IMG/VR virus record: IMGVR_UViG_2671180724_000008 | Reading direction: 5' to 3' (one strand) | DNA from: a virus | Lineage: Duplodnaviria > Heunggongvirae > Uroviricota > Caudoviricetes | DNA: 64,000 nt | Shown: in pieces, positions 5,632 through 63,801 of the stretch | Numbering within the stretch: the first letter of the stretch is position 1 | How the letters are laid out: the number at the start of each line of letters is the position of its first letter | Notes under the pieces: model-generated | Database searches by the model: none | The model's input: the letters and a program-made list of their open reading frames with translations, nothing else | Told to the model about the DNA's origin: nothing | Translations under genes and position numbers: made by a program

Positions 5632-5723
5632 TGTAGAAAAAAATATTTACATCGGTAAAAATAAGTATGTACTTACTTAATGGCGGGCAAGGATAGCCCG
5701 CCAAATCAAGGAGCATATTCAAC

Positions 5724-8700
5724 ATGTGGTACAGGGAAGGTACTATCACATTTACACAGGGTAGCAATACTCTGGTTGGGGTTGGGACAGCCTGGAACGT
5801 AACAGCTAATGGTGTGTTGCCGGGGATGATCGTCATTGGCCCCGACAATAAGCTGTATGAGATCAAGCGCGTAACAAGCGATACGAATATTGTTCTCTCA
5901 GAACCTTATACCGGCGAAACTCAGTCTGAAGTTCCGTGCCGAATCATTACGACCTATGAAGGCGACTTAACACAGTTTAGCGCGCGCTTTACTGCGCTAA
6001 TGTCGCGTATGTCGGCTGATTCCAAGTCCATGCGCAGTTGGTTGACTGCTCTTGATGAGGTGACAATCGAGCGTGAAGACGGTACAGAAGTTACCGTTAA
6101 GCCGCTGATGCAGATCGTCAACGAGCACAACGAAAACGTTGAGTGGTATAAAAATAACACCGACGCGATTGACGCTGCTGGCGACAAAGCTCGTGAGGCG
6201 GCGGCCAGTGCTGCCGCAGCAGCAGAAAGCGCCAATACCGCTGGAGAAAAAGCCTCTCAAGCGTCTCAAAGTGCATCCGCTGCGGAATCCTCACAAAGTG
6301 CTGCAAGTGCGAGTGCAACTGCTGCGAAAAAATCTGAAACGAACGCAGAATCAGCATATGTCGCGGCAGCAGAATCAGCATCTGTAGCGTCGACTAAAGC
6401 ATCGGAGGCGGCCACATCTGCGTCCAGTGCCTCTGCATCTAAGGATGCGGCTAAAGCATCAGAGGCTAACGCTTCATCGAGTGCAAACGCGGCGGCATCA
6501 TTTGCAACAGAAGCTGAAAATTCGTCTAAGGCAGCAAAAGCGTCAGAGACAAACGCAAAAGCATCTGAAACGGCAGCCGGGCAGAGTGCATCGTCTGCAA
6601 ACAGTTCGAAATCTGCGGCAGAAGCGTCAGCAAGCGCAGCCTCAGCAAGTGCGGATAGTGCTTCATCAAGTGCAACTGCGGCAGGAAAATCTGCGGAAAG
6701 CGCGTCGTCATCAGCGGCAACAGCTACCGCAAAAGCGACTGAGGCGACGAATCAGGCTACAGCCGCTAAAAATTCAGCATCAGCAGCGAAAACCTCTGAA
6801 ACAAATGCAAAGTCTTCAGAAGACAATGCCGCTTCCTCTAAGACTGCGGCTGCTGAATCTGCAAGTTCTGCGTCAGCATCAGCCACCTCGGCGTCTGCTT
6901 CAAAGGATGAGGCGACCAAGCAGGCATCAGCTGCGAAGGGTAGTGCTTCAACGGCATCCACGAAAGCAACAGAGGCGGCAGGCAGTGCGACGGCTGCATC
7001 TCAGAGCAAAACTGCTGCTGAATCCGCTGCGACTCGTGCAGAAGCTGCCGCTGATCGTGCTGAAGAGATTGCCGGTGCAGTTGCGATGGAAGACGCAAGC
7101 CTTACAACTAAAGGTGTTGTGAAACTTAGCAGTGCTGTCGATAGCACCAGCGAATCACTGGCTGCAACTCCAAAGGCAGTTAAAGCTGCGAATGACAATG
7201 CGAATAGCCGATTGGCGAAGAACCAGAATGGTGCTGATATACCAGGTAAGGATACCTTCACGAAAAATATTGGCGCTGGGCGAGCATTTGGAGGCTCTGT
7301 AAGTACAACAGCAGGAAACTGGACTACGGCACAGTTTGTCGAATGGTTGGACTCTCAAGGGGCGTTTAATCATCCGTACTGGATGTGTAAAGGCTCATGG
7401 TCGTATGGCAACAACAAAATCATTACTGATACTGGTTGTGGCAATATTCATCTTGCCGGGGCAGTAATTGAGGTAATGGGGATAAAGTCAGCAATGACGA
7501 TCCGCGTTACCACACCAACAACATCTAGCGGTGGTGGTACTGCTAACGCTCAATTTACTTATATTAACCACGGGACAGATTATTCTCCAGGCTGGCGACG
7601 AGACTACAATACAAAATACAAACCTACGCCATCGGATATAGGTGCATTATCAACATCAGGAGGGACGGTTTCAGGTCCGTTGTCTGTTACTGGTGGATTA
7701 ACTGGTTCATTGAATGGCAATGCGAGTACCGCCACGAAATTGCAGACTGCAAGAACTATCGGCGGCGTGGCCTTCGATGGATCTGCGAACATAAATTTGC
7801 CTGGTGTAAACACGGCAGGTAATCAGAGCACTACTGGTAATGCCGCAACCGCTACAAAACTTCAAACGGCAAGAACGATTGGTGGCGTTTCATTTAACGG
7901 AACTGCCAACATCGACTTGCCCGGAGTTAACAAAGCTGGCAACCAAAGCACCACAGGTAATGCTGCTACAGCTACTAAATTGCAGACAGCAAGAACCATC
8001 GGTGGTGTAAGCTTCGATGGCACTGCGAATATTAATTTGCCTGGTGTTAATGCTGCCGGTAATCAGAACACTACCGGTAACGCGGCCACAGCGACCAAGT
8101 TGCAAACTGCTAGAACTATTAACGGGGTGTCGTTTAACGGCTCTGCGAATATTTCAATACCAACAATTACGTCCAGAGGACGCGTTACTGCGCTCACCGG
8201 TACAACACAAGGTGCTGCGACTGGATTGCAGATGTACGAGGCATATAACAATGGCTACCCTTCGACTTACGGGAATGTGCTTCATCTTAAGGGCGCAACG
8301 GCCGTTGGTGAAGGTGAGTTGTTCATAGGTTGGAGCGGTACAAGTGGTGCTCATGCGCCTGTACATGTACGTTCGCGACGAGATACGGATACATCCAGTT
8401 GGTCTGAATGGGCGCAAGTTTATACGTCCAAAGACTCTATTCCAGGTGTCAATGCCACCGGTAATCAGAACACTACTGGCAACGCAGCCTCTGCAACGAA
8501 GTTGCAGACAGCCAGAACAATTGGAGGTGTGTCGTTTAATGGTACCGCCAATATTAACTTGCCGGGTGTTAATATAGCGGGTAATCAGAATACGACTGGT
8601 AACGCAGCTTCAGCCACGAAGTTACAAACGGCTCGTACCATCGGTGGTGTTAGTTTTAACGGTACAGCCAATATTAACTTACCTGGTGTGAATACGACCG

Positions 8701-9251
8701 GTAATCAGAACACTACTGGTAATGCTGCAACCGCCACAAAATTGCAGACAGCAAGGAAAATTGCTGGTGTTGCGTTTGATGGCTCTGCCGATATAACTTT
8801 GACTGCGGCTAACCTTAATGCTTATACGAAAACAGAGGTAACAAACCTTCTAAGTTCCTATGTGAAGAGCAGTGCTCTTCCAAGCATGACTGTGCGAACT
8901 TCCTCTGTATCAGGTGGGGATATGGGCATGAGTTTGTCTGCGTTCATTAGCCACCTTAAATCAAATGGAGCGTTTAGCAAAAGTTATTGGATTGGCTTTG
9001 GCGATGCTATGGGATTCAATGCTGGTAGTATCAACAATATAACGGGATTTGGTGCTGTAGAATTAGCAGAATCTATAATCGAAGTTTTTAATCTACCTAA
9101 CGGTGATTATACAATTCGTTTAACAACATCACATAAAGCTGACTACGGTGGAGTTACAAACGCAATCCTCGTTTATCACTACCGTAGTAATAGAAGTCCG
9201 TCAGGTCAATGGCTGAAATTTGCCGGTACTGTTGGGGCAACAAGCAACTGA
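5724..9251 (+). CDS. side tail fiber protein with phage-tail-fiber tandem repeats
   Basis: 1175-aa ORF with RBS aaggag upstream. Long Ala/Ser-rich low-complexity N-terminal third, then 9 copies of a 33-aa unit (TGNAATATKLQTARTIGGVSFNGTANINLPGVN). Confidence 0.7.
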   Translation: MWYREGTITFTQGSNTLVGVGTAWNVTANGVLPGMIVIGPDNKLYEIKRVTSDTNIVLSEPYTGETQSEVPCRIITTYEGDLTQFSARFTALMSRMSADSKSMRSWLTALDEVTIEREDGTEVTVKPLMQIVNEHNENVEWYKNNTDAIDAAGDKAREAAASAAAAAESANTAGEKASQASQSASAAESSQSAASASATAAKKSETNAESAYVAAAESASVASTKASEAATSASSASASKDAAKASEANASSSANAAASFATEAENSSKAAKASETNAKASETAAGQSASSANSSKSAAEASASAASASADSASSSATAAGKSAESASSSAATATAKATEATNQATAAKNSASAAKTSETNAKSSEDNAASSKTAAAESASSASASATSASASKDEATKQASAAKGSASTASTKATEAAGSATAASQSKTAAESAATRAEAAADRAEEIAGAVAMEDASLTTKGVVKLSSAVDSTSESLAATPKAVKAANDNANSRLAKNQNGADIPGKDTFTKNIGAGRAFGGSVSTTAGNWTTAQFVEWLDSQGAFNHPYWMCKGSWSYGNNKIITDTGCGNIHLAGAVIEVMGIKSAMTIRVTTPTTSSGGGTANAQFTYINHGTDYSPGWRRDYNTKYKPTPSDIGALSTSGGTVSGPLSVTGGLTGSLNGNASTATKLQTARTIGGVAFDGSANINLPGVNTAGNQSTTGNAATATKLQTARTIGGVSFNGTANIDLPGVNKAGNQSTTGNAATATKLQTARTIGGVSFDGTANINLPGVNAAGNQNTTGNAATATKLQTARTINGVSFNGSANISIPTITSRGRVTALTGTTQGAATGLQMYEAYNNGYPSTYGNVLHLKGATAVGEGELFIGWSGTSGAHAPVHVRSRRDTDTSSWSEWAQVYTSKDSIPGVNATGNQNTTGNAASATKLQTARTIGGVSFNGTANINLPGVNIAGNQNTTGNAASATKLQTARTIGGVSFNGTANINLPGVNTTGNQNTTGNAATATKLQTARKIAGVAFDGSADITLTAANLNAYTKTEVTNLLSSYVKSSALPSMTVRTSSVSGGDMGMSLSAFISHLKSNGAFSKSYWIGFGDAMGFNAGSINNITGFGAVELAESIIEVFNLPNGDYTIRLTTSHKADYGGVTNAILVYHYRSNRSPSGQWLKFAGTVGATSN
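7720..8165 (+). repeat. 99-bp (33-aa) tandem repeat block 1 inside tail fiber gene
   Basis: Five consecutive near-identical units encoding ATKLQTARTIGGV(S/A)F(N/D)G(S/T)ANI. Confidence 0.75.
8440..8800 (+). repeat. 99-bp (33-aa) tandem repeat block 2 inside tail fiber gene
   Basis: Three to four further units of the same repeat after an intervening unique domain. Confidence 0.75.
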
Positions 9252-9288
9252 TTTAGACATTATTTCTAATAAGGATAATTTATAAGAT

Positions 9289-9321
9289 GGTTGTGAGGTC
9301 GATAAATATGGCCTCACAACC
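9289..9321 (+). terminator. stem-loop downstream of tail fiber gene (putative terminator or RNA stabiliser)
   Basis: 10-bp perfect inverted repeat ggttgtgagg / cctcacaacc around a 13-nt loop. No clear T-tract follows, so efficiency is uncertain. Confidence 0.35.
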
Positions 9322-10211: not shown

Positions 10212-10445
10212 ATGATGAAAAGATTATTTCTAACAATAGCTGTTGTTCTCTCTCTTACTGGCTGCCAGAAATTGCCGACACCTATATGTTATGGTGAGGC
10301 TATCATTGGTGGACAGGAGACTGTCATACCTATATATGCTGTTAAAAAAGTGAACGACTATACCTTATACAAAGCGGGTAGCATCTATAACTGGCGATGG
10401 GTTGGAGTAGGTGCTTTCTCATCAGTCCGTTGCAATGCTGAATGA
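10212..10445 (+). CDS. small lipoprotein, candidate superinfection-exclusion (Cor/Llp-like) protein
   Basis: 77-aa ORF with lipoprotein signal MMKRLFLTIAVVLSLTGC (lipobox LTGC). Sits immediately after the receptor-binding genes. Confidence 0.45.
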   Translation: MMKRLFLTIAVVLSLTGCQKLPTPICYGEAIIGGQETVIPIYAVKKVNDYTLYKAGSIYNWRWVGVGAFSSVRCNAE

Positions 10446-10514
10446 TAGGTAAGTACACACCTACAACAAAAGGGTGAAATGTGATATAAATCCGCCATCC
10501 CGATTTGACTTTTC

Positions 10515-15392: not shown

Positions 15393-15455
15393 GCCTGCTT
15401 CCGTATATATAAATAATAAGTAACTTATTAAATATATACAGAAGCAGGTCTTTTA
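15393..15455. repeat. conserved hairpin element, copy A (cctgcttc / gaagcagg stem around an AT-rich loop)
   Basis: 8-bp stem enclosing a roughly 39-nt AT-rich loop, followed by a T-run. A near-identical element recurs at 62088..62148. Confidence 0.5.
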
Positions 15456-15555
15456 AAAGACACCACCAGAACAACTCCCTTCCGTTTCCACTTCCAAAAA
15501 CTGCCACCAGTCGCTATCATCCGCCCATTGTGATAAGTAAGTAACTACCTACCAG

Positions 15556-18952: not shown

Positions 18953-19027
18953 CAAACGCCGTTAAAATAAGTAGATGATTACTTATCTTTCTGTAAGAAT
19001 ACTTTCATCTGTTAGCTAGGAGTTGGT

Positions 19028-19810: not shown

Positions 19811-19865
19811 TCTCTCCGCGCGTCGTTTTTTACGCAAATAACGATAGGTAAGTACAAGATTATTT

Positions 19866-22478: not shown

Positions 22479-23256
22479 AAACATATTGATAAGTATTTAC
22501 TTACTTATCTTTTGTGTATAAGATGACTTTGTTTTCGTTGAGACGCGACTGTTTGAACTTAAATACAAGTGCAAACGAAGAAGTCTATCTGGCAGTAGCC
22601 TAATAAGCCAAACACCAGCGAGGTCAGTTTCCAGCCTCGTTACCGAAATGGGACACACTGAGCGAGTGTGATTGCAGAACGCAGGAGGGAACATTCATGT
22701 TCCCTCCGATGAAGTAACAGAATGGGCGGTTGGTATATTTTCAACTCCATATGACTCCCGGATTCTTAGCCACTGACCGCCCATCCTGTTACGTCATTTT
22801 GTTCAATTATGTCGTTTATACTGGGTTAAAAAGCGGCGACGTAGCCCGGCTGGTATGGTTAGCCAGCACACAACGTTGAGGCCATTACATTTTTATCAAT
22901 TCTAAGGTTCTATTCACAGAGATACCGGCGAGCGTTGATATGTAACATGTTGGGCAAACATTCAATCGGAGTAGTGGCCTCAACGTTGTGAAGACGGGAT
23001 TGTTGTGTAGGTTTAACCACTGTTGCCATTGGTGCCTGTTTTCACAACAAATGATTCCATACATCACATTGTATAAATTACAAAGTAGGTGCTGTCCTCA
23101 GAAACATCATCTACTTAAAGATTTTGCCTTCTACTATTGAGCGAAGTCGAAAGCGTCTGGCACTAACGAAAAGTGCAAGTAGCGGTGCGTTTCCTGGCAG
23201 AAACTAAACCGTCGCGATTGGCACTGTTGAGTAATAAATACTGGCAGTGCTGAATT

Positions 23257-23331: not shown

Positions 23332-23336
23332 ATTTA

Positions 23337-23423
23337 GGGGAGTTAGTCCGTAGAGGTAGCGGTGTAGACTGTAAATCTACTGTCATTGCGACTCGGGTGG
23401 TTCGACTCCATCACTCCCCACCA
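23337..23423 (+). tRNA. tRNA-Tyr (anticodon GTA), type II with long variable arm
   Basis: Acceptor ggggagt / actcccc, anticodon stem-loop gtaga-ctGTAaa-tctac, long variable arm, T-loop ttcgact, encoded CCA. Confidence 0.7.
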
Positions 23424-23427
23424 AATT

Positions 23428-23503
23428 GCCGGTTTAGCTCAGTTGGTAGAGCGCCTGCCTTGTAAGCAGGATGTCAGCGGTTCGTGTCCGTTAACCGGCA
23501 CCA
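23428..23503 (+). tRNA. tRNA-Thr (anticodon TGT)
   Basis: Acceptor gccggtt / aaccggc, D-arm gctcagttggtagagc, anticodon loop ctTGTaa, T-loop ttcgtgt, encoded CCA. Confidence 0.75.
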
Positions 23504-24171
23504 ACATAATATTGAGAACATTGGCGTAACGGGGTCATATCCCAATCTATGAATAAATGTTACGTTGCCGCGTGACAACCAGTGTTCTCAACATTGTGGT
23601 GAATGCACAGGCTGATGTGCCGCAACTACAGTAGTGCGCGCTTTGCGGGGCTTGCTACAACCCTGTGTCGGAGATCAGCGCCGACCATCACAATTTGGCT
23701 CTCTTGCAACAGCATAACGCTGAAATATGTCCAACCTGGTGCGGCCTGTTCACCCGCCGTTAGCTCCACGAAACGGAGCGCACAACAGATAAGAGAACTT
23801 CCCATATGGGGCTTGGCTTAAATGCATCGAGTTCTCTTATCGCTGTGTCACAGACAAATTTCCGACAGCCCTGTTTATCATCGGACGCAACCTAAAAGGT
23901 CGAGGCAAAGCCAGGTAATAGCGGAGGGAGTGACACAGCACACAACAGGTAAGAGCATTTGTAGAGTTCGACTCTCTACCGTGGGCTTTTTCCCGCGATG
24001 CGAGCCATAAATGCTCTTTCCGTTGTGGTGGATTCGCAGACTGATGCGATAGCTTTCTTGGATGTTAGGGAAATGCGGCCGCAAATCTTCCCTTTCGCGA
24101 GCGGTGATCGTCCGTAGTCCTAATTGGCTGCACCGTATGCCGGAGATTCAGTACCGGCCACCACAACGGCC

Positions 24172-24258
24172 GGAGAGTAGGGAGCATGGTGCTCAAGCGG
24201 TCTTGAAAACCGTCCCATTGTGCAAACGATGATGGTTCGATTCCATTACTCTCCGCCA
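24172..24258 (+). tRNA. tRNA-Ser-like (anticodon TGA), type II, non-canonical D-arm
   Basis: Acceptor ggagagt / actctcc, anticodon stem-loop gcggt-ctTGAaa-accgt, long variable arm, T-loop ttcgatt, encoded CCA. The D-arm is irregular, so function is uncertain. Confidence 0.5.
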
Positions 24259-24260
24259 GA

Positions 24261-24338
24261 CACAGCGTTGAGCGGTTTGGCCTTTTAATCAACTCGATTA
24301 AGACTCCGCTAACATAAACCAGACCGCTCAACGCTGTG
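24261..24338. repeat. long imperfect inverted repeat immediately after the tRNA cluster
   Basis: 20-bp arms (19/20 match): cacagcgttgagcggtttgg and ccagaccgctcaacgctgtg, separated by a 42-nt loop. Confidence 0.6.
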
Positions 24339-24370
24339 ATAGACAATTACGGCAGACGTTCTTAACCATA

Positions 24371-24400
24371 GCTTGCTAACATCCTAGCAACACTTTTTTT
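24371..24400 (+). terminator. rho-independent terminator after tRNA region
   Basis: ttgcta-acatcc-tagcaa hairpin followed by cacttttttt. Confidence 0.5.
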
Positions 24401-24413
24401 CAGCGCAAAATTC

Positions 24414-24436
24414 AAAGGGGCTTCGGCCCCTTTTTT
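24414..24436. terminator. bidirectional rho-independent terminator
   Basis: aaaggggc-ttcg-gcccctttttt, with an A-run upstream and T-run downstream. Lies just past the 3' end of the minus-strand gene 24454..25788. Confidence 0.75.
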
Positions 24437-24453
24437 GAAAGCAATGGGCAAGT

Positions 24454-25788
24454 TCATGCCAAATTATCCAGATTTCTTTTCTTTTTTTCAATTATATTTC
24501 TCGCGCCAGAAAAAATTTTACTCAAAATAATTGATTTGCTTGCTCTATTATTAAGATGTAACAACGCGCTATAAAATACATAGTTATCTATTTTACTATT
24601 TAAAGTATTCCCAAGCTTCCCGTTATATGTGCTATTAATAGTATTAAAATATACATGTTCAGGACCTATATTACAAATACCCCTATCAACTCGCTTTAAA
24701 TAATGTTTAACTAAAGAAATAGCATCTTCCTTATCATTAATAACATAAAGTCCTGAGCGTTTACCTAGCTTGCTGTCCGAGAATAATTTATAACCAACAA
24801 GTTCATTTAACGTATTATCCACTTTTGTCAACTCTTTGTTGGCAATCTCCAAATAATACTCAATCTCTTTCTCCATATTACTTATTAAAGAGTTAAATTC
24901 TGCTCGTAACAAATCACCACCAGGTGATTTATAACTCCATAAAATTGAATTGGTAATACGTACTACGTCAGATACTTCTGGTTTCTCTGAATAGTTTTTG
25001 TATCTAGTGCAAATAATGCTGTGCTTTATATATTCTCTAACTAATGATCGATAATCCCTTTCGAAAAGGTTTTTGACATCTAGTCTTCCATTGCTTGTTG
25101 TTATTAAGGTGGTGTTTAAAACTGGGTCGCCTTCAAAAAAATTATATTTATTTAGTAATCGTTTTAGCTTGTGTGAATTATGTGATGTTTCGCCATAATA
25201 ATTTATCCCAAAAATAGCAATTATTAGCATAACATCAGGAGTGATGAAATGTCGTAATTGCTCGGCATAAACTTTTTTATCTTCGATTTTCGAAGATGGA
25301 GAGTAAAAACCTTTGTCTATATATTCTAATATTGAAACAATATTACTAACATAACGTATAAAAACTTGATTCATTACAACGGAATCATAAACCTGATGCA
25401 AATAATCTACTCTCAAGTTGTTTTTTATTTTTTCCCCTGTACTAGATGATAACTCTTCTTTTACCTGCCCAAGTAGCTTTTCGTGGTGCTCCAGCAATGT
25501 TTTAAACCATTGTTCAAATGATGATTTTCTTGCCTCAGTTAATGAATCTGATGTTATCTGGACAGCTTTCATAGCTGCTTTCGCACTTTTCTTTGCTTCA
25601 TAAGCGTTCCATGCTGAAGCACAAAAAGCTGCCGCCGTGATGCAACTGGTAAAAATAGAAATCCTATCTGCAACATTCAAGCTCCAGAACCAATCAGACG
25701 ATGAAATCAAAACCACAGATATTACGGGAACAATGAAAATCAAAACAGGCATGTATGTACTCGCTCTAATAGTTATTAGTCGAGGCAA
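24454..25788 (-). CDS. low-GC membrane protein of unknown function (candidate accessory / defence or exclusion gene)
   Basis: 444-aa minus-strand ORF in a markedly AT-rich segment. Two predicted N-terminal TM helices, then a largely helical soluble region with no nucleotide-binding or nuclease motif recognisable by eye. Own terminator at 24414..24436. Confidence 0.5.
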   Translation of the reverse strand: MPRLITIRASTYMPVLIFIVPVISVVLISSSDWFWSLNVADRISIFTSCITAAAFCASAWNAYEAKKSAKAAMKAVQITSDSLTEARKSSFEQWFKTLLEHHEKLLGQVKEELSSSTGEKIKNNLRVDYLHQVYDSVVMNQVFIRYVSNIVSILEYIDKGFYSPSSKIEDKKVYAEQLRHFITPDVMLIIAIFGINYYGETSHNSHKLKRLLNKYNFFEGDPVLNTTLITTSNGRLDVKNLFERDYRSLVREYIKHSIICTRYKNYSEKPEVSDVVRITNSILWSYKSPGGDLLRAEFNSLISNMEKEIEYYLEIANKELTKVDNTLNELVGYKLFSDSKLGKRSGLYVINDKEDAISLVKHYLKRVDRGICNIGPEHVYFNTINSTYNGKLGNTLNSKIDNYVFYSALLHLNNRASKSIILSKIFSGARNIIEKKKRNLDNLA

Positions 25789-25848
25789 ATATTATATAAA
25801 TCTCGTTATGATTTACAGACATGTATACGTATTGCTAATTATCACCAA

Positions 25849-25880
25849 CAAATGATAGGTGTGTACATATCTATCATTTG
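25849..25880. promoter_or_regulatory. palindromic operator-like site in a divergent intergenic region
   Basis: Perfect 10-bp inverted repeat caaatgatag ... ctatcatttg with a 12-nt spacer, between the minus-strand membrane-protein gene and the glutaredoxin gene. Confidence 0.45.
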
Positions 25881-25930
25881 TTGTAAAATTAATGTATACG
25901 CTATGAATACACTAATAATATGAGGTAATC

Positions 25931-26176
25931 ATGACTATCGTTATCTACGGACGAGATAACTGTTCATACTGCAAACGTGCGGTCGAGCTGGCGAAGCAAC
26001 TAAAGGGACATGGCTACGGTGATTATGAGTACATCGACATCACTACTACCGGTATCGATAAGGAAAAACTTAGCGAAATTGTTGGTAAACCGGTAGAGAC
26101 TATACCCCAGGTACTGATCGATGGCCAGCCGATTGGCGGATACACAGAACTGGCTGCATACGTCAGCACCCTCTGA
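25931..26176 (+). CDS. glutaredoxin (NrdH/Grx-like thiol-disulfide redoxin)
   Basis: 81-aa protein with active-site CSYC near the N-terminus and the TIPQVLIDGQPIGG motif. Confidence 0.7.
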   Translation: MTIVIYGRDNCSYCKRAVELAKQLKGHGYGDYEYIDITTTGIDKEKLSEIVGKPVETIPQVLIDGQPIGGYTELAAYVSTL

Positions 26177-26180
26177 TTTT

Positions 26181-26206
26181 AACGGCTCACAGGAGCCGTT
26201 TTTATT
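26181..26206 (+). terminator. rho-independent terminator
   Basis: aacggctc-acag-gagccgtt hairpin followed by tttatt. Confidence 0.7.
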
Positions 26207-26386
26207 CCCACCAAACTCACTCCCGTTTCCCTTAAAATTCAAAAAACAACGTCAAAATGATTCCATACCTACTATGTATGGAATCATTCGTGAAAATGAG
26301 TTACTTTTACTCTTGATCCTATAAGAATCTATGCCTAATATACTGTTTACTTATACAGTGAATCGGCGTAACTCGGTGATTGTCAT

Positions 26387-27490
26387 ATGAAAAATAGCTT
26401 TGACAGAGCACGCGCTGCGGAGAACACCTCAAAAGAGGCGATTGAGTATCTCGAAAGAGCATCTCAAATGCAGGCCGTTATGATCTCGCAGGTTAGCAAT
26501 GACATGAGATTCTCGGACGCATTCATGTTATTCACTCGCTTATCTCTGCTTATAACCAGACGTCGGCCAGAGATCGCTGTTCATTGTATTTTGATACATG
26601 TTTTGCCGCACATTGCTGATGTAAAAGTAAGTGACATTAATAGGTTCATGGTGAACCAACTGGTAAACCCACTAATACTGGATGGCAAAATTGTTATGGG
26701 CCGCCGCGTTTTCTCTCTGATGAAGCAGTTCCTTAGCTGGTGCGCCTTCCAGGGGATGATAGACGTGTCACCGTTAAACGATATGTCACTAAACAAAGTT
26801 GCCGGTGGCGCAAAGCCCACACCTCGCGAGCGGAAGCTGACCGACGCAGAGGTATGGGTGTTCTGGAATATATGGGACTACTTCAATGTGTGCGCTGGTA
26901 CAAAATGGGCGGCCAGGCTGTGTCTTGTATCAGCAAGACGACCTGACGAAGTACTGCGGGCTAAAAAAAGTGAGTTCAATCTTAAGCGTGGGGTTTGGAA
27001 TCAAGGCAAGAGAAACAAGTCAGCACGTGAGCATTCGCTGCCTTTAAGCACATTAATGCGCACATGCATTGAAGAGTTGTTCGAATACGGTAAAGACAGC
27101 CAGTGGCTCGTGCCTTCGAATAAAAAAATCGGGAAAGACCTTCCTATGTCTAAAGTGGCAATAGCCCAGGCATTACGTCGTATTCTGGAACGACCAGAAC
27201 TGATGGAGCTTGAGCCATTTACACCCCGAGATTTGCGCCGTACTGCGCGTAGTTACTTCCCAGCATTAGGCATAAGCCAGGAGGTATCACGCAAAATCAT
27301 GAACCACAGTCTTGAGGGGATAGATCGGGTCTACGACCGGCACGATTATATGGACGAGATGCGAGACGCCTTAGAAAGTTTCTCGACGTACATCGCATCA
27401 ATCGTAGAGCAACCGGATTTAGACGAAATTGACCACAAATTCAAGGGAGATCGTCTATCAACAGAGCTTATTCGTGTAAATTTTTCATAG
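26387..27490 (+). CDS. tyrosine-type site-specific recombinase (integrase / resolvase family)
   Basis: 367-aa ORF. C-terminal catalytic region carries R..DLRRTARS ... HS ... YDRHDY, consistent with the R-H-R-Y tyrosine recombinase signature. Confidence 0.7.
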   Translation: MKNSFDRARAAENTSKEAIEYLERASQMQAVMISQVSNDMRFSDAFMLFTRLSLLITRRRPEIAVHCILIHVLPHIADVKVSDINRFMVNQLVNPLILDGKIVMGRRVFSLMKQFLSWCAFQGMIDVSPLNDMSLNKVAGGAKPTPRERKLTDAEVWVFWNIWDYFNVCAGTKWAARLCLVSARRPDEVLRAKKSEFNLKRGVWNQGKRNKSAREHSLPLSTLMRTCIEELFEYGKDSQWLVPSNKKIGKDLPMSKVAIAQALRRILERPELMELEPFTPRDLRRTARSYFPALGISQEVSRKIMNHSLEGIDRVYDRHDYMDEMRDALESFSTYIASIVEQPDLDEIDHKFKGDRLSTELIRVNFS

Positions 27491-27871
27491 AGACTTTATG
27501 GCCTCAACAACCTTTTGTGATGCGCCTTTCTCTTTACCGAATCGCTCGTTATATGCAGCAAGAACCTGTTTTTCGTCCTCGTTAAGAGGAGCGGTGCCTT
27601 CTTTGTATAAAAATGCTGCGAGTTCAGGTTGGCGTTCTTCCAGCACCATCATCATAAGACGACTTGGCTCAATACCCAGCGCCAGCGCCAGCGGACGAAC
27701 CTTATCGATAGGCAAAGGAATTTTGCCACTTTTAATTAAAGAAAGGTTGTTGGCATTTTTATAACCAATAAGTCTGGCTATTTGGGCCTGACTCATAGGT
27801 GAGGATTCAATCAGCCCTGCGATAAAAGCAGCATAGCGACTTTCTATAAATTCAATCTTGTTGTCAGACAT
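27485..27871 (-). CDS. XRE-family helix-turn-helix transcriptional regulator (repressor-like)
   Basis: 128-aa minus-strand ORF with HTH segment SQAQIARLIGYKNANNLSLIKSG. Convergent with the recombinase gene and divergent from the operon beginning at 28123. Confidence 0.6.
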   Translation of the reverse strand: MSDNKIEFIESRYAAFIAGLIESSPMSQAQIARLIGYKNANNLSLIKSGKIPLPIDKVRPLALALGIEPSRLMMMVLEERQPELAAFLYKEGTAPLNEDEKQVLAAYNERFGKEKGASQKVVEAIKSL

Positions 27872-28122
27872 TGTTACAACCTTTGCGCGTTTAATTCTCT
27901 CTGGTAAGTGCTTACCGATATTACATCAAAGGTTAGGGTTGTAAAGCTATTATCATTTTTTTCGGCAGGCACTTGTAAGACCGAGCAAAGGTCCATGCAT
28001 GGAGAAAAACTAGCCCAAAATAGGTAAGAAAATTAACTTGCATCTGATATAGATGTATTCAGTATTGATACAAATTTTAGTAGTATTCCTTACCATAGTA
28101 TAAGTTAGAATGGATTGATTGA

Positions 28123-28335
28123 ATGAAAACCACTATTTCCAGCCTAATCGCTCTTGAGATCGGACACGTACAGAAATTAGCTGATGAGTGTGTAGCTGAC
28201 ATCCTCACCGATCTACCGAATGAGCAGATTCAGGTTGGTGTGAATGACACAACTGGCTTTATATTCGAACTTAACAACAAACGCTTCACGCTTCTCAATA
28301 CCGGCTCCGGGTCTTTAGCCGTCAGAATCTGTTAA
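28123..28335 (+). CDS. hypothetical protein
   Basis: 70-aa ORF, first gene divergent from the HTH regulator. Confidence 0.3.
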   Translation: MKTTISSLIALEIGHVQKLADECVADILTDLPNEQIQVGVNDTTGFIFELNNKRFTLLNTGSGSLAVRIC

Positions 28336-28433
28336 CCCCTCTTCTCCCTGCGCGAATGGCTTAGTTCCCTGTTCGCGCAGTGCTACATTAAACACACTAG
28401 TAAATAATTTGTTTTCATAACAAAGGATTAGCC

Positions 28434-30542: not shown

Positions 30543-30637
30543 TTAAAACAGCCTTAACGATAAGTAACTACTTATGATAGTTAATGATATATTTATATAA
30601 GAAGTTGAACGCTCATTAGAGAACAAAGGAAAAACGC

Positions 30638-35604: not shown

Positions 35605-35697
35605 CCCTTATCCCCTCATATCCCCTATCCTCGAACTCCTTGCCTTATCATCACAATGATATAATCAATATAAAATGATAAGTAAAAAGGAAAGCAC

Positions 35698-36129: not shown

Positions 36130-36246
36130 TTTTTGATAGATAATAAGTAAGTACTGATCTATCATTTAACAGCTCGAAAGAGCCACGAATGAACGAAAGC
36201 CCAACGCGCATAGCGCCATCGGCCAAATCACAACAAGGAGAAACAC

Positions 36247-39616: not shown

Positions 39617-39621
39617 ACACA

Positions 39622-39645
39622 AGGCGTCCACAGGACGCCTTTTTT
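39622..39645 (+). terminator. rho-independent terminator
   Basis: aggcgtcc-aca-ggacgcct hairpin followed by ttttt. Confidence 0.75.
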
Positions 39646-39708
39646 ATCTCTTGAAAATATATAAGTACTTACTTATCATTTTCACATAACAACCACATAG
39701 GAAAACAC

Positions 39709-42470: not shown

Positions 42471-42860
42471 ATGCTTTTAATTCAACCTGGGTTCGGTTTA
42501 AAGATAAAAAAAGGGCATATGTTTGGTGAGCGAGATTCCAAACGAAAAATTCTGTCTATTCGATTACCATTTATCACCATTCATTGGTTAAACAGAGAGT
42601 CAACCGATTATTGGTATAAATGCGCAAGAGCAGCATTTAACGACCCTGACTGGTTTGTAGAAAATCACCACGCGGTTCGTCAGGCAAAAAGAAAGGCTAA
42701 TACGACATATATGAAGGCATATCAGGATGCCTGGGAAGAACATCGTGGCCGATACCAAAAAAACATTGAAAAACTTGAATCAGAAAATATGGACCTAAGA
42801 AGAAAACTTGGTGAAGCACGTCGAGACATCGAAGCATATAAACGTCTTGTATCGGAGTGA
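42471..42860 (+). CDS. hypothetical protein
   Basis: 129-aa ORF. Confidence 0.35.
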   Translation: MLLIQPGFGLKIKKGHMFGERDSKRKILSIRLPFITIHWLNRESTDYWYKCARAAFNDPDWFVENHHAVRQAKRKANTTYMKAYQDAWEEHRGRYQKNIEKLESENMDLRRKLGEARRDIEAYKRLVSE

Positions 42861-43348: not shown

Positions 43349-43403
43349 TCGCCTATTCATAACTAACAAAATAAGTAAACACTAACCACAAAAGGAAAAA
43401 CAC

Positions 43404-43679: not shown

Positions 43680-43718
43680 GTTTACAGTAAAATTTATATA
43701 AGTTAGTATCTACCTATC

Positions 43719-43898
43719 ATGAAGATTTTTATTGAATACTTGTTACTCATCGTGTCAATAGCTTTTGTCATCGACTGCATTTTCACTGGTGTCATTCGTA
43801 AAGTCTTTTCCCCGGTGAACGACGTAGTAATAAACGCTTTGGCTATCGTGCTCGTATTTAATTCAGCATTTGATGTAATCAAAGAGGTGGCAGCATGA
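43719..43898 (+). CDS. small membrane protein
   Basis: 59-aa ORF, absent from the track (under 60 aa). Two hydrophobic helices; ATGA overlap with the next gene. Confidence 0.25.
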   Translation: MKIFIEYLLLIVSIAFVIDCIFTGVIRKVFSPVNDVVINALAIVLVFNSAFDVIKEVAA

Positions 43899-47082: not shown

Positions 47083-47336
47083 CCCTCCAGATCGTATATT
47101 GGCGTAGATAGAATCTACGCCCCCTCAAAATAGCTCTCATAGCGTTCTACAGTGATCCTGTCTTATTTTTAGTCATACAGGCAAGCAAAGTTGCGCCACA
47201 ACAAATAGGTATATACTTACTTATAAATTTTGTATATTAAGACGCTCGTTTCATTCCTAACATACCGTTATGCATAGTTGTTTACCTTCTCATTGCTCTT
47301 AAAATTTGTATCAAAATAACCACAAAGGAAAAACAC

Positions 47337-51880: not shown

Positions 51881-51914
51881 TTTCATTGATAGGTAAGTGC
51901 TTATCTATTAACAT

Positions 51915-51947
51915 GGGCCACTATATTTAGTGGCCCTCTTTATTTGG
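51915..51947 (+). terminator. rho-independent terminator
   Basis: gggccact-atattt-agtggccc hairpin followed by tctttatttgg. Confidence 0.65.
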
Positions 51948-51953: not shown

Positions 51954-54269
51954 ATGATAAGCATCGTAAAACGTAACGGCCAAACAGAGCCGTTATCCGA
52001 AGAAAAATACAACCGCGTCGTAATGTATGGCGTAGAAGGCATTCGTGGTGTAAGCGCATCCGCTGTAGCAATGGGAGCTGCGGCCAGCATTTTTGATGGG
52101 ATTACCACCAGCCAGTTGCATGAGGCTTTGGTTAAATCTGCCGCTGATTTGATCTCACCAGATGCACCAAATTACTCGCAGGTGGCTGCCCGCCTGAACA
52201 TTTTTAAAATCCGCAAAGATGCCTTCGGTCGTTACGACTATCCGAACTTCTACCAACACATTGTCAAGAACGTTAACAAGGGCGTCTATGACAAGGATTT
52301 GCTGACACATTATTCATTTGAAGAGATCGAAGAACTCGGCAATTACATTAAGCCTAAACGTGACGATCTTTTTGGCTATGCAGCTACGGTGCAATTGCAA
52401 AGCAAATATCTCGTTCAAAACCGTGTTACTGGTGAGATTCATGAGGGGCCGCAACATATCTATATGCTGGTAGGCATGTGTCTGTTCCAGAATTGGGAAG
52501 ACGACTGCGCTGGCAAAACACGTATGGAGATGGTCAAAGGTTTCTATGACGTTACAAGTACGTTCAAACTGTCTCTGCCCACACCAATCATGGCCGGCGT
52601 CCGTACTCCAACCCGTCAGTTCTCCAGTTGTGTGCTGATTGAGTCTGGCGATAGTCTGAAAGGTATTAGTGCAGCTTCAGCCGCAATTATCGACTACGTT
52701 TCACGTCGTGCTGGAATTGGTATTGGTTTTGGCCGTATCCGTGCGCTGGGCAGCGAGATCCGCAATGGTGAAGCCACCCATACCGGAGTTATTCCATTCC
52801 TGAAGCATTTCCAGACGGCTGTTAAATCTTGTTCGCAAGGTGGTGTTCGTGGTGGCGCAGCAACAGCGTTTTACCCGATCTGGCATCTTGAAGTTGAAAG
52901 TCTGCTGGTGGTGAAAAATAACCGTGGTATTGATGAAAACCGCGTTCGCCATCTTGATTACGGCGTCATGAGTAACCGTCTAATGTACCGTCGACTCGTC
53001 AGAAGCGAGAACATCACTCTGTTCAGCCCGCATGATGTGCCTGATATGTACGAAGCCTTCTTCACAGACCAGGATCTGTTTGAAAAGCTGTACCATAAAT
53101 ACGAAGCCGATGATTCAATTCGCAAGAAGTCAGTACCTGCCATTGAGCTGTTCTCATCTCTGATGCAGGAACGAGCGTCCACGGGCCGAATTTATATTGC
53201 GAACGTCGATCATATTAATGAGCATGGCGCTTTCATTCCTGCTCTTGCACCTGTCCGCCAGTCAAACCTGTGCATGGAGATCACTCTACCCACTCGTCCA
53301 CTGGCATTTACCGACGACCCGAACGGTGAGATCGCGCTATGCACTTTATCCGCTTTTAACCTCGGAGCCATCCGTTCACTGGAGTCTCTTAAAGAGGTGG
53401 CGTTCTATGCCGTTGCTGCACTGGATTCGTTACTGGATTATCAAGACTATCCGATGGAGGCAGCCGAAGTGCCTGCCAAAGCTCGTCGTAGCCTGGGAAT
53501 CGGTGTAACCAACTTTGCTTATTACCTGGCAAAGAATGGCGTTCGTTATTCTGATACCGCTGGCAATAAACTGGTGCATGAAACGTTCGAAGCTATCCAG
53601 TATTACCTTCTTGATGCCAGCTGCCGACTTGCTGAAGCAAAAGGTGAGTGTGACTGGTTTGAGCAGACCAAGTACGCAATTGGTCAGTTGCCGATCGACC
53701 ATTACCGTTCTTCATTAGACGAAAGTGACGAAACCAACTTTGAGTTAAAGATGCCGTGGGAAGAACTGCGTGAACGTATTGCGAAATACGGCCTTCGCAA
53801 CTCCACACTGACGGCACAAATGCCATGTGAGACTTCCAGCCAGATCACTAATTCCACCAACGGCATCGAACCGCCTCGTGGCCCGGTGTCGGTGAAATCT
53901 TCTAAGGACGGCATCGTTAAGATGGTCGTGCCTGAGTTTGAAAAACTGAAGGAACAGTATGAATACCTGTGGGATATGCCGGACAACCGCGGCTATCTGA
54001 CAAAGGTGGCGATCATCCAGAAGTTCTTCGACCAGGCTATTTCAGCCAATACCAACTATGACCCTTCTCGCTTTGAAGGCGATAAAGTCCCAATGATGAC
54101 GCTACTGTCAGATTTGCTTCTCGCCTACAAGATGGGAGTTAAAACGCTTTACTACCACAACACCAGAGATGGGGCAGGAAAGCGTGATGACGACGAACCG
54201 CAGAATCCACTGACGCAAGCTGTAGCCGTCGAGCCAGAAGATGAGTGCGACGGAGCCTGCAAAATCTGA
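51954..54269 (+). CDS. nrdA: ribonucleoside-diphosphate reductase alpha subunit (class Ia NrdA)
   Basis: 771-aa ORF. Near-collinear, high-identity match (by eye) to enterobacterial NrdA along its length, including N-terminal ATP-cone, catalytic-site segments and C-terminal Cys pair. Confidence 0.9.
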   Translation: MISIVKRNGQTEPLSEEKYNRVVMYGVEGIRGVSASAVAMGAAASIFDGITTSQLHEALVKSAADLISPDAPNYSQVAARLNIFKIRKDAFGRYDYPNFYQHIVKNVNKGVYDKDLLTHYSFEEIEELGNYIKPKRDDLFGYAATVQLQSKYLVQNRVTGEIHEGPQHIYMLVGMCLFQNWEDDCAGKTRMEMVKGFYDVTSTFKLSLPTPIMAGVRTPTRQFSSCVLIESGDSLKGISAASAAIIDYVSRRAGIGIGFGRIRALGSEIRNGEATHTGVIPFLKHFQTAVKSCSQGGVRGGAATAFYPIWHLEVESLLVVKNNRGIDENRVRHLDYGVMSNRLMYRRLVRSENITLFSPHDVPDMYEAFFTDQDLFEKLYHKYEADDSIRKKSVPAIELFSSLMQERASTGRIYIANVDHINEHGAFIPALAPVRQSNLCMEITLPTRPLAFTDDPNGEIALCTLSAFNLGAIRSLESLKEVAFYAVAALDSLLDYQDYPMEAAEVPAKARRSLGIGVTNFAYYLAKNGVRYSDTAGNKLVHETFEAIQYYLLDASCRLAEAKGECDWFEQTKYAIGQLPIDHYRSSLDESDETNFELKMPWEELRERIAKYGLRNSTLTAQMPCETSSQITNSTNGIEPPRGPVSVKSSKDGIVKMVVPEFEKLKEQYEYLWDMPDNRGYLTKVAIIQKFFDQAISANTNYDPSRFEGDKVPMMTLLSDLLLAYKMGVKTLYYHNTRDGAGKRDDDEPQNPLTQAVAVEPEDECDGACKI

Positions 54270-56464: not shown

Positions 56465-56533
56465 TTGTAGGTAGTTATCTATCTGTGTATATTGCATTGG
56501 CGCGTTAAATTTCTGAAACAACTATTCGTTTTT

Positions 56534-56558
56534 GGTGGCCTATGGCCACCATTTTTTT
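56534..56558 (+). terminator. rho-independent terminator
   Basis: ggtggcc-tat-ggccacc hairpin followed by attttttt. Confidence 0.75.
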
Positions 56559-56635
56559 ATCTATCTGGTCTTGTTCGCTCAATAAATGTAAACTCACATA
56601 ATGAATAAGTAGTTACTTATCTTTGTGAGGTTTTT

Positions 56636-61364: not shown

Positions 61365-61410
61365 AACGCGCCAGAGAGCTTCTTGTTCGCATTTCTGGCG
61401 CGTTTTATTT
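61365..61410 (+). terminator. rho-independent terminator
   Basis: aacgcgccaga / tctggcgcgtt 11-bp stem followed by ttatttgatt; a second hairpin gtgctgggt / acccagcac lies just upstream. Confidence 0.7.
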
Positions 61411-61470
61411 GATTGCCATACATAAAATCAAATGCAAAAATAGGTAATCACTTACCTATCGAGAAAGAAG

Positions 61471-62064: not shown

Positions 62065-62087
62065 TTTGTTCTGGCGAGTGTAATTAA

Positions 62088-62148
62088 CCTGCTTCTGTAA
62101 ATAAATAACTACATATTAATTATTAATATACGGAAGCAGGCTGTTTTG
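62088..62148. repeat. conserved hairpin element, copy B (cctgcttc / gaagcagg stem around an AT-rich loop)
   Basis: Same 8-bp stem and similar AT-rich loop (gtaaataaataa...) as copy A at 15393..15455, followed by ctgttttg. Confidence 0.5.
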
Positions 62149-62249
62149 TATCAGAGACTCCCAGACCTGAACACCACTACAGAATCCACTAGAACCCCTT
62201 CTCAGACGCTTTAAAATCGATTTTATGAACCACTTTAAGGAAAACTAAC

Positions 62250-62480
62250 ATGTCATACCCGACCAATGTTGTTGCGCTCGTAGAGAGCGATTTTCTGGCT
62301 AAGGCTCGTGAAATGATGAAAGATCGCGAGCAGGCTTTCAACTTGTACGAATGGGCAATTAAGTGCTTGCATCTTGGGGAGCATCGCGAACTTGTTGAAC
62401 AGCTTTTAGGTGAGTTGATCAACGAGGTGTTTGCCTTGAATGTTCAACTACATGGTCGAGAAAATAATCAATCGAAATGA
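62250..62480 (+). CDS. hypothetical protein
   Basis: 76-aa ORF with start context aaggaaaactaacATG. Confidence 0.35.
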   Translation: MSYPTNVVALVESDFLAKAREMMKDREQAFNLYEWAIKCLHLGEHRELVEQLLGELINEVFALNVQLHGRENNQSK

Positions 62481-62997
62481 TAGATAAGTACAAACTATTC
62501 ATAAGATGAATTGTAAGTGCTAAGATCTGATAGTTTCCAGTCATAGACTGGAGACTCGACCTGATGGGTGGGGGTAAGCGTCACTGGCGTCAGGTTTAAA
62601 AAAGCTCACTACCAGCGTAGAACCGGTGCCGTTTAGGTGTCGGGGAAGGGGGAACCAAAGTGAGCAGAGACAAGGGTCACTTTATGATTGTCGAGTCTGG
62701 GGTGTTTCGAGAGGTTGAATCCAGTACTCCCCTTCATAAAGTGTGGGAAGATCTCGGTTCTGGGGTGCTGTCATCCATAACTTCCCAAGTCTAAGCTGGC
62801 AGTAGACTTAGACCATAGCTTTTCAGGTTATGAAACGACCAGGTTGGTGAGGAATTTTATACTCACCTCCCTGGGAGAGTATTACCTGAAAAGACAACCT
62901 CTCACTTCGTTCGAGGTGAACTTCACTCACTTCGTTCGTTCAGTTCAGGTTTATAAAAACCTGTACTGGGAAGTAATTTGTTTATTTTAATAATTAT

Positions 62998-63023
62998 TAC
63001 ACGCACGCGTGTGCGCACGCGCG
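62998..63023. repeat. 26-nt perfect alternating purine-pyrimidine tract (Z-DNA-prone)
   Basis: tacacgcacgcgtgtgcgcacgcgcg alternates Pu/Py without interruption and contains the direct repeat cgcacgcg twice. Lies about 40 bp upstream of the RNase H start. Confidence 0.6.
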
Positions 63024-63062
63024 AGGAAAAAAATAGGCGCGGCGCTTGATTCAGGAGTTTAT

Positions 63063-63653
63063 ATGACGTCGAAGACACCAGCCCGGTCGCAAGCAAAAAC
63101 TCGCAAAAAAGACAAAAACAAAAATTCTCCCCGCACCAATCCCACAACGCCTGTCGTAGAGTTCAATCCCCAGCTTAAAACCGTGAAAATCTTCAGTGAT
63201 GGCTCTTGCCTTAAAAATCCGGGTGGCCCGGGCGGTTACGGTATAGTTCTCCAGTATCGTGGTGAGGAACGCGAGTTCTCAGATGGTTTTCATAGCACCA
63301 CCAATAACCGCATGGAGATGATGGGGGCACTTATCGGGCTGGAGCGTTTGAAATATCCATGCAACGTTATTTTGCACTCTGATAGCCAGTATCTGAAAAA
63401 CGGCATGACACAGTGGATGAAATGGTGGAAACGCAATGGATGGATGACTTCTGACAAAAAACCGGTAAAGAATGTTGATCTGTGGAAGCGTCTGGATGAG
63501 GCCGCAAGTCGACATAATGTTCGCTGGAAGTGGGTTAAAGGTCACGCCGGGCATCGTGAAAATGAAATATGTGATCGACTCGCGAAGATCGCAGCTTTTT
63601 CAGCAGCAGATATGCCTCACAAGAAAGATATTGGTTTTGTTTATAACAATTAG
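63063..63653 (+). CDS. rnhA: ribonuclease HI
   Basis: Start at the ATG preceded by caggag. Motifs [28 protein letters not shown] and [14 protein letters not shown] are typical of RNase HI. Has a short basic N-terminal extension. Confidence 0.8.
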
Positions 63654-63801
63654 TAAGTAAGTATTTACCTATTATTTTAAATCATGTATCTTATCGGCGT
63701 CAGGATGACAATGTGTCGGTAAGACACAGTTCCAGGATGGAACGAGAAAGGCGGCTGGCAATCGCCAGCCGCAACTCTTTCTGACACTGGATGGAGTCCA
63801 C

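Follow-up and report, generated by a model that had tools for sequence, protein, structure and literature searches.

A recurrent 22-bp palindrome on the promoters of an SSU5-like phage-plasmid: probable operators of a phage-encoded repressor, with a small XRE-type protein as the candidate

How are the lytic genes of a large phage kept silent while its genome is carried as a plasmid? This question was raised by a partly palindromic motif that recurs ahead of many operons in a 64,000-nucleotide (nt) stretch of viral DNA (Caudoviricetes; IMG/VR virus record IMGVR_UViG_2671180724_000008), which is the whole sequence analysed here and is referred to as the window. The window belongs to an SSU5-like phage-plasmid, with 96-97% identity over 12 kb to the Escherichia phages CMS-2020a, PhiR41_1 and Cyrano and about 80% identity to Salmonella phage SSU5 and to Klebsiella phage-plasmids. 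Its genes lie almost throughout on the plus strand and run from the tail tip to lysis, partition, replication, recombination and nucleotide metabolism. Phage-plasmids of this SSU5-like type rank with the most frequent large plasmids in Klebsiella, E. coli, Enterobacter, Salmonella and Yersinia; about 960 PLSDB records were found here, and some members have been reported to carry resistance genes and to be inducible by DNA-damaging drugs (PMC9600943). Cyrano, SSU5 and the Klebsiella phage pJN2-26 were used as comparison genomes, together with 55 IMG/VR loci surrounding homologues of an XRE-type helix-turn-helix (HTH) protein encoded at 27485..27871, which an earlier annotation made from the letters of the window alone (the sequence-only reading) had named as a candidate regulator. 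Our analysis indicates that the motif is very likely the operator of a repressor encoded by the phage-plasmid itself, and that this XRE-type protein is probably the repressor that binds the sites.

In an unbiased census of 7-mers, ATAAGTA was the one most enriched between genes (18 occurrences in 6.5 kb of intergenic DNA vs 7 in 57.5 kb of coding DNA, p = 3e-13), and the degenerate form ATARGTA was found 38 times in the window, compared with 11.1 +/- 3.1 times in shuffled sequence. After re-alignment, the repeated unit proved to be a 22-bp palindrome, GATAAGTAAGT|ACTTACTTATC, composed of 4-bp units (TAAG TAAG T | A CTTA CTTA). Sites were called by counting mismatches against this palindromic consensus in place of a position weight matrix (PWM); iterative PWM refinement at a loose threshold drifted to T-rich sequence and to the reverse complement of a common ribosome-binding block, and was dropped; the translation-start block AAGGA(A/G)A..CACATG described below came up there as a spurious second motif. 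With up to six mismatches allowed, 17 matches were obtained vs 0.23 expected (300 dinucleotide shuffles, maximum 2), or 0.08 expected when the intergenic DNA alone was shuffled. These matches represent 16 separate sites, since those at 63648 and 63652 overlap. All 17 are intergenic and stand 5' of plus-strand genes, the site at 22488, which was scored as coding by our crude set of open reading frames (ORFs), being placed 3' of the CYRAN_39 stop codon by the Cyrano annotation of the orthologous site. The recurrence at about 19 sites that had been described previously is therefore real, and the motif is enriched between genes and well above its frequency in shuffled DNA.

The site list needed some revision (Table 1). 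Among the 18 coordinates given in the sequence-only reading, 15 correspond to full sites with no more than six mismatches, 30560 is a conserved site with seven mismatches, and 35677 and 43371 are left half-sites only. Three positions were shifted in the 22-bp frame, from 36133 to 36142, from 39661 to 39656 and from 56605 to 56600. A full site at 25854-25875 had been missed, as had a 14-bp core, GGTAAGTGCTTACC, at 27903-27916 on the promoter of the XRE gene. The two half-sites, the seven-mismatch site and this core come in addition to the 16 sites.

Base counts over the 22 positions are symmetric, and the most conserved bases, A(A/G)GTA and TAC(T/C)T, have their centres 11 bp apart, one helical turn, a spacing that would be expected of an HTH dimer. 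Two finer claims about the half-sites were not borne out. The half-sites had been said to co-vary, and positions 5 and 18 were found to be independent in all three genomes tested (window: A-T 4, A-C 4, G-T 3, G-C 4, Fisher p = 1.0; SSU5: p = 0.29; pJN2-26: p = 0.35). The distinction between an N2 and an N6 spacing turned out to be an artefact of the internal TAAG/TAAG 4-bp periodicity, and one 22-bp frame aligns all sites. Symmetric base counts without compensatory co-variation point to a DNA-binding dimer, not an RNA hairpin. A search of the flanks for a conserved element at constant distance from the 22-bp unit gave none.

In every orthologous intergenic region compared (Cyrano, SSU5, pJN2-26 and the IMG/VR loci, with relatives at about 80% identity), the palindrome forms a conserved island between diverged flanks; at the site at 10444, SSU5 and pJN2-26 have a fuller palindrome (TGTAGGTAAG..CTTACCTACA) than the window. 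The whole Cyrano genome holds about 24 sites, some of which fall among or inside the head and tail genes while one lies 5' of parB, so that the system is genome-wide and not tied to one temporal class of genes. The overlap with sequences resembling -35 and -10 hexamers that had been noted earlier is also real: 7 of the 22 plus-strand promoter-like matches of the window lie on motif sites, and the mean of the best promoter scores overlapping the sites is 8.68, vs 7.21 +/- 0.29 at random intergenic positions (200 trials, maximum 8.03), part of this score coming from hexamers inside the motif itself. At the conserved promoters of 43681-43709, 39651-39679 and 51886-51914, the motif is located at -19..+2, -30..-9 and -33..-12, respectively, and over all sites its position relative to the inferred starts ranges from about -41..-20 up to -9..+12, with no fixed distance to the -10 hexamer. 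Two Cyrano sites, 3526 and 96685, are likewise found at promoters (TTGAAA-17-TATGAT and TTGTAA-17-TAGAAT). Because constant placement would be expected of activator sites and promoter elements, a register that ranges from the -35 region to beyond the start site argues for repressor operators.

The site map was compared with gene-level RNA-seq data of Cyrano, which is 96% identical to the window (S1 Table of PMC9928086). In the lysogen grown in lysogeny broth (LB), 18 genes are expressed, which comprise XRE, the integrase and toxin-antitoxin genes, the parA block, repA and a handful of others, and none of the 24 first genes after motif sites is among them. Genes behind near-consensus promoters lie at 2.32 in these cells, which is the detection floor. 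In macrophages, the genes carrying a LexA box, namely the umuD-like CYRAN_98 and the integrase gene, rise by 4.7-5.0 log2, which indicates that the SOS response is on. The most induced genes of lytic orientation under this condition are CYRAN_46 (+6.4 log2), 60-62 (+5.2 to +6.3), 56 (+5.3), 5 (+4.7) and 12-13 (+4.1 to +4.4), and each of them is either the gene directly behind a motif site that has a good promoter or a later member of that unit (5 after 4, 61-62 after 60, 13 after 12). The gene behind the site corresponding to 39656 goes from the detection floor in LB to +5.3 log2 in macrophages, and genes 60-62 behind the site corresponding to 43697 go from at or near the floor to +5.2-6.3 log2. 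CYRAN_46, the top induced gene, is the orthologue of the 70-amino-acid (aa) ORF at 28123..28335, whose sites are the half-sites in the XRE control region. Strong promoters that are off in the lysogen and on under stress point to active repression at these places. These facts, together with the promoter overlap and the core on the XRE promoter, support the earlier proposal of a genome-wide promoter/operator family laid out like the C1 operators of phage P1.

Several lines of evidence make the XRE protein (128 aa) the candidate for the binder, although its binding to the sites is deduced indirectly. It matched the PHROG family phrog_8, 'transcriptional regulator', with E = 6.6e-12, while a sequence search of the PDB returned no match. 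A structure model built with AlphaFold from an alignment of database homologues (mean predicted local distance difference test score, pLDDT, 73.9 overall and 86-90 at residues 11-80) has helices at residues 12-23, 28-34, 41-47, 55-64 and 69-80, which form a five-helix Cro/CI domain, followed by C-terminal helices. The best Foldseek matches of this model were HTH repressors of phages and controllers of restriction-modification systems, that is, C.AhdI (1.5 A over 62 columns), P22 c2 (1.6 A over 61) and 434 Cro (1.9 A over 63), with weak E-values of 0.007-0.1. In the Cyrano lysogen the gene is expressed about 10-fold over background. Its promoter, TTTACA-16-TAATAT, carries the motif core GGTAAGCACTTACC 1 nt past the -10 hexamer, and a 48-bp block at this promoter shows no variation among 8 loci, although the XRE proteins there share only 66-70% identity and the flanks have diverged. 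Divergent from XRE, in the position of cro, lies the 70-aa ORF.

The distribution of XRE and the variants of the motif are consistent with this assignment. XRE was found in 961 PLSDB plasmids (Klebsiella 348, Escherichia 230, Acinetobacter 123, Enterobacter 92, Yersinia 63, Salmonella 49), and the core gp32-like gene in 975, with a nearly equal taxon profile; the database homologues of XRE lie almost solely on contigs of about 100-116 kb. The recognition-helix (helix-3) segment of XRE, GYKNxNNLSLIKSGKIPLPI, is invariant among the lineages that share the motif, except that the pKpn lineage, with 57-59% identity and the same motif, has GYKNPNILSLIKKGRIPLPV in this segment, which is hence conserved and not invariant. 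Two relatives in Acinetobacter baumannii have their own motif variants: L066 carries 9 sites of ATCAGTCAGTACTGACTGAT in 24 kb and L067 carries 11 of AGTAAGCGCTTACTAATA in 40 kb (2.7-3.8 per 10 kb), with little cross-occurrence, and each variant is present on its own XRE promoter. Their helix-3 regions also differ (KRPNVLSMIKSGE in L066 and -NQNMVSFIVRGK in L067, vs KNxNNLSLIKSGK), so that altered XRE helices go with altered motifs (TAAG to TCAG). The nomination of XRE as candidate regulator is thus supported by the motif on its own promoter, its core status in the plasmids and the lineage-matched motif variants.

We therefore regard it, with moderate confidence, as the best overall explanation that 22-bp operators on lytic promoters are bound by the 128-aa XRE protein in the plasmid-prophage state and that RNA polymerase is thereby occluded. 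About 20 operators in the window, and about 24 per 108-kb genome, would each lie on a sigma-70 promoter heading a lytic unit, the units being those for replication, recombination, nucleotide metabolism, tail fibre and lysis and, outside the window, the head and tail genes. In the plasmid state, XRE dimers on the palindromes would exclude RNA polymerase from some two dozen promoters, and XRE on its own promoter would limit its own synthesis by negative autoregulation. If the repressor were lost or inactivated, every unit would fire from its own promoter.

How the repressor might be removed is suggested by the neighbouring integrase gene. A domain scan of XRE found no S24 peptidase domain that could undergo RecA-stimulated self-cleavage, and induction must accordingly take an indirect route. 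The integrase gene (26387..27490, plus strand) is convergent with the XRE gene, their 3' ends overlapping by 6 bp, and is preceded at 26341-26360 by a strong LexA box, TACTGTTTACTTATACAGTG, whose CTGT-N8-ACAG is kept in all enterobacterial loci examined while the interior varies. It may be speculated that SOS-driven convergent transcription of the integrase gene would lower XRE, and the reported induction by ciprofloxacin and mitomycin C fits an SOS-driven loss of XRE. The far-reaching version of this scheme, in which XRE alone gates essentially every early and late unit of a 108-kb phage without a cascade, and an SOS-released integrase transcript stops repressor synthesis by collision or antisense RNA, with neither self-cleavage nor an antirepressor, is considered doubtful. 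Outside the window, a perfect LexA box (TACTGTATGTGTATACAGTA; Cyrano 89270-89300, L002 39270-39300) was also seen 5' of CYRAN_98, a gene for a UmuD-like S24 peptidase, which is expressed in the lysogen and rises by 5 log2 in macrophages.

Table 1 Candidate operators, half-sites and the candidate repressor gene in the window (left empty where nothing is recorded)
Feature	Position	Strand	Sequence	Context
Operator	5660..5681		AATAAGTATGTACTTACTTAAT	4 mismatches; 5' of tail-fibre gene (ATG 5724); kept in Cyrano, SSU5 and pJN2-26, flanks diverged
Operator	10444..10465		GATAGGTAAGTACACACCTACA	5' of holin/endolysin block (ATG 10515)
Operator	15532..15553		GATAAGTAAGTAACTACCTACC	adjoins ribosome-binding site of first gene of helicase/primase block
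Operator	18966..18987			conserved extended -10 TGTAAGAAT 4 nt downstream; motif at about -41..-20; 7 loci
Operator	19843..19864			5' of block with DNA ligase; intrinsic terminator about 12 nt upstream in relatives
Operator	22488..22509		GATAAGTATTTACTTACTTATC	best in window, 2 mismatches; followed by conserved TGTATAAGAT; 5' of tRNA cluster; 8 loci
Operator	25854..25875		GATAGGTGTGTACATATCTATC	5' of glutaredoxin gene (25931); in E. coli-type loci; TGTACA-16-TAAAAT
XRE-type HTH protein, 128 aa	27485..27871	-		candidate repressor
XRE promoter	27899..27945	-	TTTACA-16-TAATAT (27945 to 27918)	core GGTAAGCACTTACC (27903-27916) at about -5..+9
Motif half-sites	28017..28110		AAAATAGGTAAG; CTTACCATAG; TATAAGTTAG	5' of divergent 70-aa ORF 28123..28335
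Operator	30559..30580			7 mismatches, left half and inner right unit; 5' of MoxR/CobS-like gene; conserved TATAAGA -10 downstream; 8 loci
Left half-site	35677..35688	+	GATAAGTAAAAA	just 3' of conserved -10 TGATATAAT; adjoins ribosome-binding site of uvsY-like gene
Operator	36142..36163			5' of gp32-like single-stranded DNA-binding protein (SSB) gene; right end overlapped by TATCAT -10
Operator	39656..39677			occupies spacer of TTGAAA-17-TATCAT (39651-39679); terminator 39621-39641 upstream
Left half-site	43370..43381	+	AATAAGTAAACA	5' of gene 43404; adjoins ribosome-binding site
Operator	43697..43718			covers -10 and start site of TTTACA-17-TAGTAT (43681-43709); ATG at 43719 directly after; 4 genomes
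Operator	47204..47225			5' of sbcD-like gene
Operator	51888..51909			between -35 and -10 of TTGATA-17-TAACAT (51886-51914); 5' of nrdA; 4 genomes
Operator	56600..56621			5' of thyX (GTG 56636); terminator 56533-56551 upstream
Operator	61439..61460			about -9..+12 of TTGCCA-17-(TG)AAAAAT (61413-61441); 5' of adenine methyltransferase gene
Operator	62479..62500		GATAGATAAGTACAAACTATTC	in long non-coding stretch 62423-63008
Operator	63652..63673		AGTAAGTAAGTATTTACCTATT	3' of RNase H gene; 2 mismatches in SSU5

Several observations weigh against repression by XRE at these sites and have to be set beside it. The Cyrano expression data are resolved at gene level only, and the step-up in macrophages is limited to part of the site-linked genes. 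Against Pfam, XRE stays below the curated cut-offs (HTH_19, 18.9 bits with a cut-off of 30.2; HTH_37, 16.4 bits with a cut-off of 27). The co-variation of motif and XRE across lineages is confounded by overall divergence, and the predicted promoter registers are based on consensus hexamers and conservation, some of the hexamers being internal to the motif. At five sites (18966, 22488, 25854, 30559 and 47204), the motif is at -41..-20 with a poor -35 and a conserved -10, and it may have an activating role there. Finally, SSU5 has no XRE by tblastn, yet it has about 20 well-preserved sites, which equally allows a binder encoded elsewhere.

The case of SSU5 bears on a rival explanation in which the sites are operators of a phage-encoded repressor other than XRE alone, either a protein retained by SSU5 or the pair of XRE and the 70-aa protein (28123..28335) sharing sites in the manner of CI and Cro. 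The alignment of SSU5 to the window stops at 23332 and resumes at 28336, and the 5-kb stretch 23333-28335 is missing (at 42601-42662 of SSU5, L059), which removes three tRNAs, an AbiC-like gene, the genes for glutaredoxin, integrase and XRE, and the 70-aa ORF. The roughly 20 sites kept by a phage that has neither XRE nor the 70-aa ORF count in favour of another binder, as do the annotated regulators outside the window (CYRAN_114/SSU5_121 and CYRAN_123). The promoter of CYRAN_114, however, has no motif, and no HTH was obvious by eye in its protein, for which no family-library scan was made. Moreover, the XRE promoter has the motif in every lineage and in the lineage's own variant, and XRE is core in elements in the plasmid state: of the twelve SSU5-like records in the phage collection, it is lacking only in SSU5 (two copies of one phage) and in one 84-kb record. 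SSU5 was isolated as a plaque-forming phage and has been proposed for anti-Salmonella phage cocktails, and on the simplest reading it is probably a derivative that has lost the immunity region and is obligately lytic, with operators that have been kept through their overlap with its promoters. A binder other than XRE is accordingly given a limited but appreciable chance.

If the motif were an activator site, or a promoter element particular to the phage that takes the place of the -35 hexamer for lytic switch-on, as in the P1 Lpa late-promoter repeat or the T4 MotA box, this would account for the five sites at about -41..-20, and it would agree with the depletion of canonical promoter-like matches in the window relative to shuffled sequence (12 vs 27.7, 26 vs 31.9 and 19 vs 33.4). 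A sigma-70-family protein is moreover encoded by the Acinetobacter relatives, between a MoxR-like ATPase gene and dnaE (L067 15101-15766, from A. baumannii plasmid NZ_CP043456.1; L066 14915-15583), but tblastn found no homologue of it in the window, Cyrano or SSU5. Against it stand the register, which runs from -41 to +12 and takes in the start site and positions beyond it, and the silence in the lysogen of several complete, near-consensus sigma-70 promoters that have a site within them. The motif, being symmetric, also lacks the directionality of a promoter. We therefore hold this explanation to be improbable.

It is very improbable that some of the sites are roadblocks to elongating polymerase. 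The model for such sites is the stoperators of mycobacteriophage L5, which are 13 bp long, act in an orientation-dependent manner and block elongation. Very short co-directional gaps would suit such a role, for example Cyrano site 2019, in a 26-bp gap, and the tiny operon gaps between terminase and portal genes in Cyrano and between the J and tail-fibre genes at 5660; neither 5660 nor Cyrano 2019 has a convincing conserved -35/-10. The sites are nevertheless symmetric, unlike the asymmetric L5 stoperators, and recognisable conserved promoters are present at most of them.

An action of the motif as RNA (hairpin, processing site or translational operator in 5' leaders) or as the site of a host factor is hardly credible: many sites lie 0-40 nt from a ribosome-binding site and a perfect palindrome could fold into a 9-bp hairpin, but compensatory changes are absent, with A-C mismatches at chance frequency, half-sites exist (35677, 43370), the motif lies mostly upstream of the predicted start at several promoters, and the two variants within the single host species A. 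baumannii rule out a host factor. The Fur, LexA and NrdR boxes of the host were dropped as candidates for this last reason and because the motif is dissimilar to them.

The proposed repression by XRE at dispersed operators can be compared with known systems. Lambdoid phages have their operators clustered at two control regions, and a cascade of N and Q runs the rest. The present system shares with lambdoid CI/Cro, P22 c2 and 434 the five-helix HTH fold, palindromic operators on promoters, an operator on the candidate repressor's own promoter and a small divergent gene in the Cro position; it differs in that the operators are genome-wide and in that XRE has neither an S24 peptidase domain nor a detectable PDB sequence relative. 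As in mycobacteriophages L5 and L1, tens of repressor sites are spread over early and late regions, often in short intergenic gaps, whereas the sites here are symmetric and mostly on promoters. The conserved inverted repeats (CIRs) of Streptomyces phage phiC31 are palindromic repressor sites present in many repeats near early promoters; the repeated palindrome is alike, and host, repressor family and sequence are all different. Mycobacteriophage repressors are reported to bind multiple, asymmetric operators (PMC1934351).

The closest layout is that of P1, whose C1 repressor has 22 dispersed operators with a 17-bp asymmetric sequence, ATTGCTCTAATAAATTT, and controls Lpa, the activator of the late promoters for morphogenesis and lysis genes (PMC8546580). 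Both are plasmid prophages with about 20 or more operators over about 100 kb, on lytic promoters and on the gene of the repressor or candidate repressor itself. The present motif is, in contrast, a 22-bp palindrome of unrelated sequence with an XRE-type candidate repressor of 128 aa, and is not a member of the C1 system. Unlike in P1, where late genes are reached through Lpa, the same motif stands directly 5' of the tail-fibre and lysis genes and, in Cyrano, of head and tail genes. No description of the motif or of a repressor of the SSU5 group was found in the searchable literature, which left out some relevant papers, and no control system for the SSU5-like group is mentioned in a 2024 review on how phage-plasmids are regulated (PMC11652158).

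The type of control is thus familiar and introduces no new principle of regulation, and its description is useful for a clinically common plasmid family. If true, it defines the immunity regulon of the SSU5-like family, offers a simple explanation of the lytic behaviour of SSU5 (a missing immunity cassette) and leads to predictions, open to test, on how these plasmids could be cured or driven into induction. The natural operator and repressor variants (TAAG, TCAG, TAAGCG) would also provide material on the evolution of HTH specificity.

Some further features were observed along the window, where Rfam at gathering thresholds returned tRNAs only. The long non-coding stretch 62423-63008 holds conserved blocks without an Rfam match, and CYRAN_81, a tiny ORF in it, is expressed about 12-fold above the lysogen background; the stretch may encode a small RNA. 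The region 24000-26000 is a low-GC island (36% vs about 46%), probably defence cargo, which is not found at the corresponding place in Cyrano; its gene 24454..25788 (minus strand) encodes 444 aa with a weak match to putAbiC, a putative abortive-infection family (21.7 bits, cut-off 22).

A second repeat, a palindrome of about 55 bp (CCTGCTTC(C/T)GTA[A/T-rich core]TAC(A/G)GAAGCAGG), is located at 15393-15449 and 62087-62141. It has 3 copies per genome, the third spanning the ends of the Cyrano record (L003 8341-8379 and L001 1-17), and by analogy with N15 the copies may be dispersed centromere or recombination sites. The weak operator-motif matches at 15408/15415 and 62100 are the A/T-rich centre of this palindrome and were excluded from the operator count.

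Three observations concern leaders and translation starts. The gp32-like SSB gene has a long leader (36165-36246), kept in relatives, with small GC hairpins (GCTCGAAAGAGC, GCGCATAGCGC), and is reminiscent of the translational operator of T4 gene 32. Downstream of the promoter at 51886-51914 and ahead of the nrdA start at 51954, a terminator-like hairpin (GGGCCACTATATTTAGTGGCCC and a T tract; 51915-51944) is kept in four genomes and may be a leader attenuator of nrdA. A translation-start block, AAGGA(A/G)A..CACATG, is near-identical at six genes (16338, 35687, 36235, 43392, 47325 and 54363).

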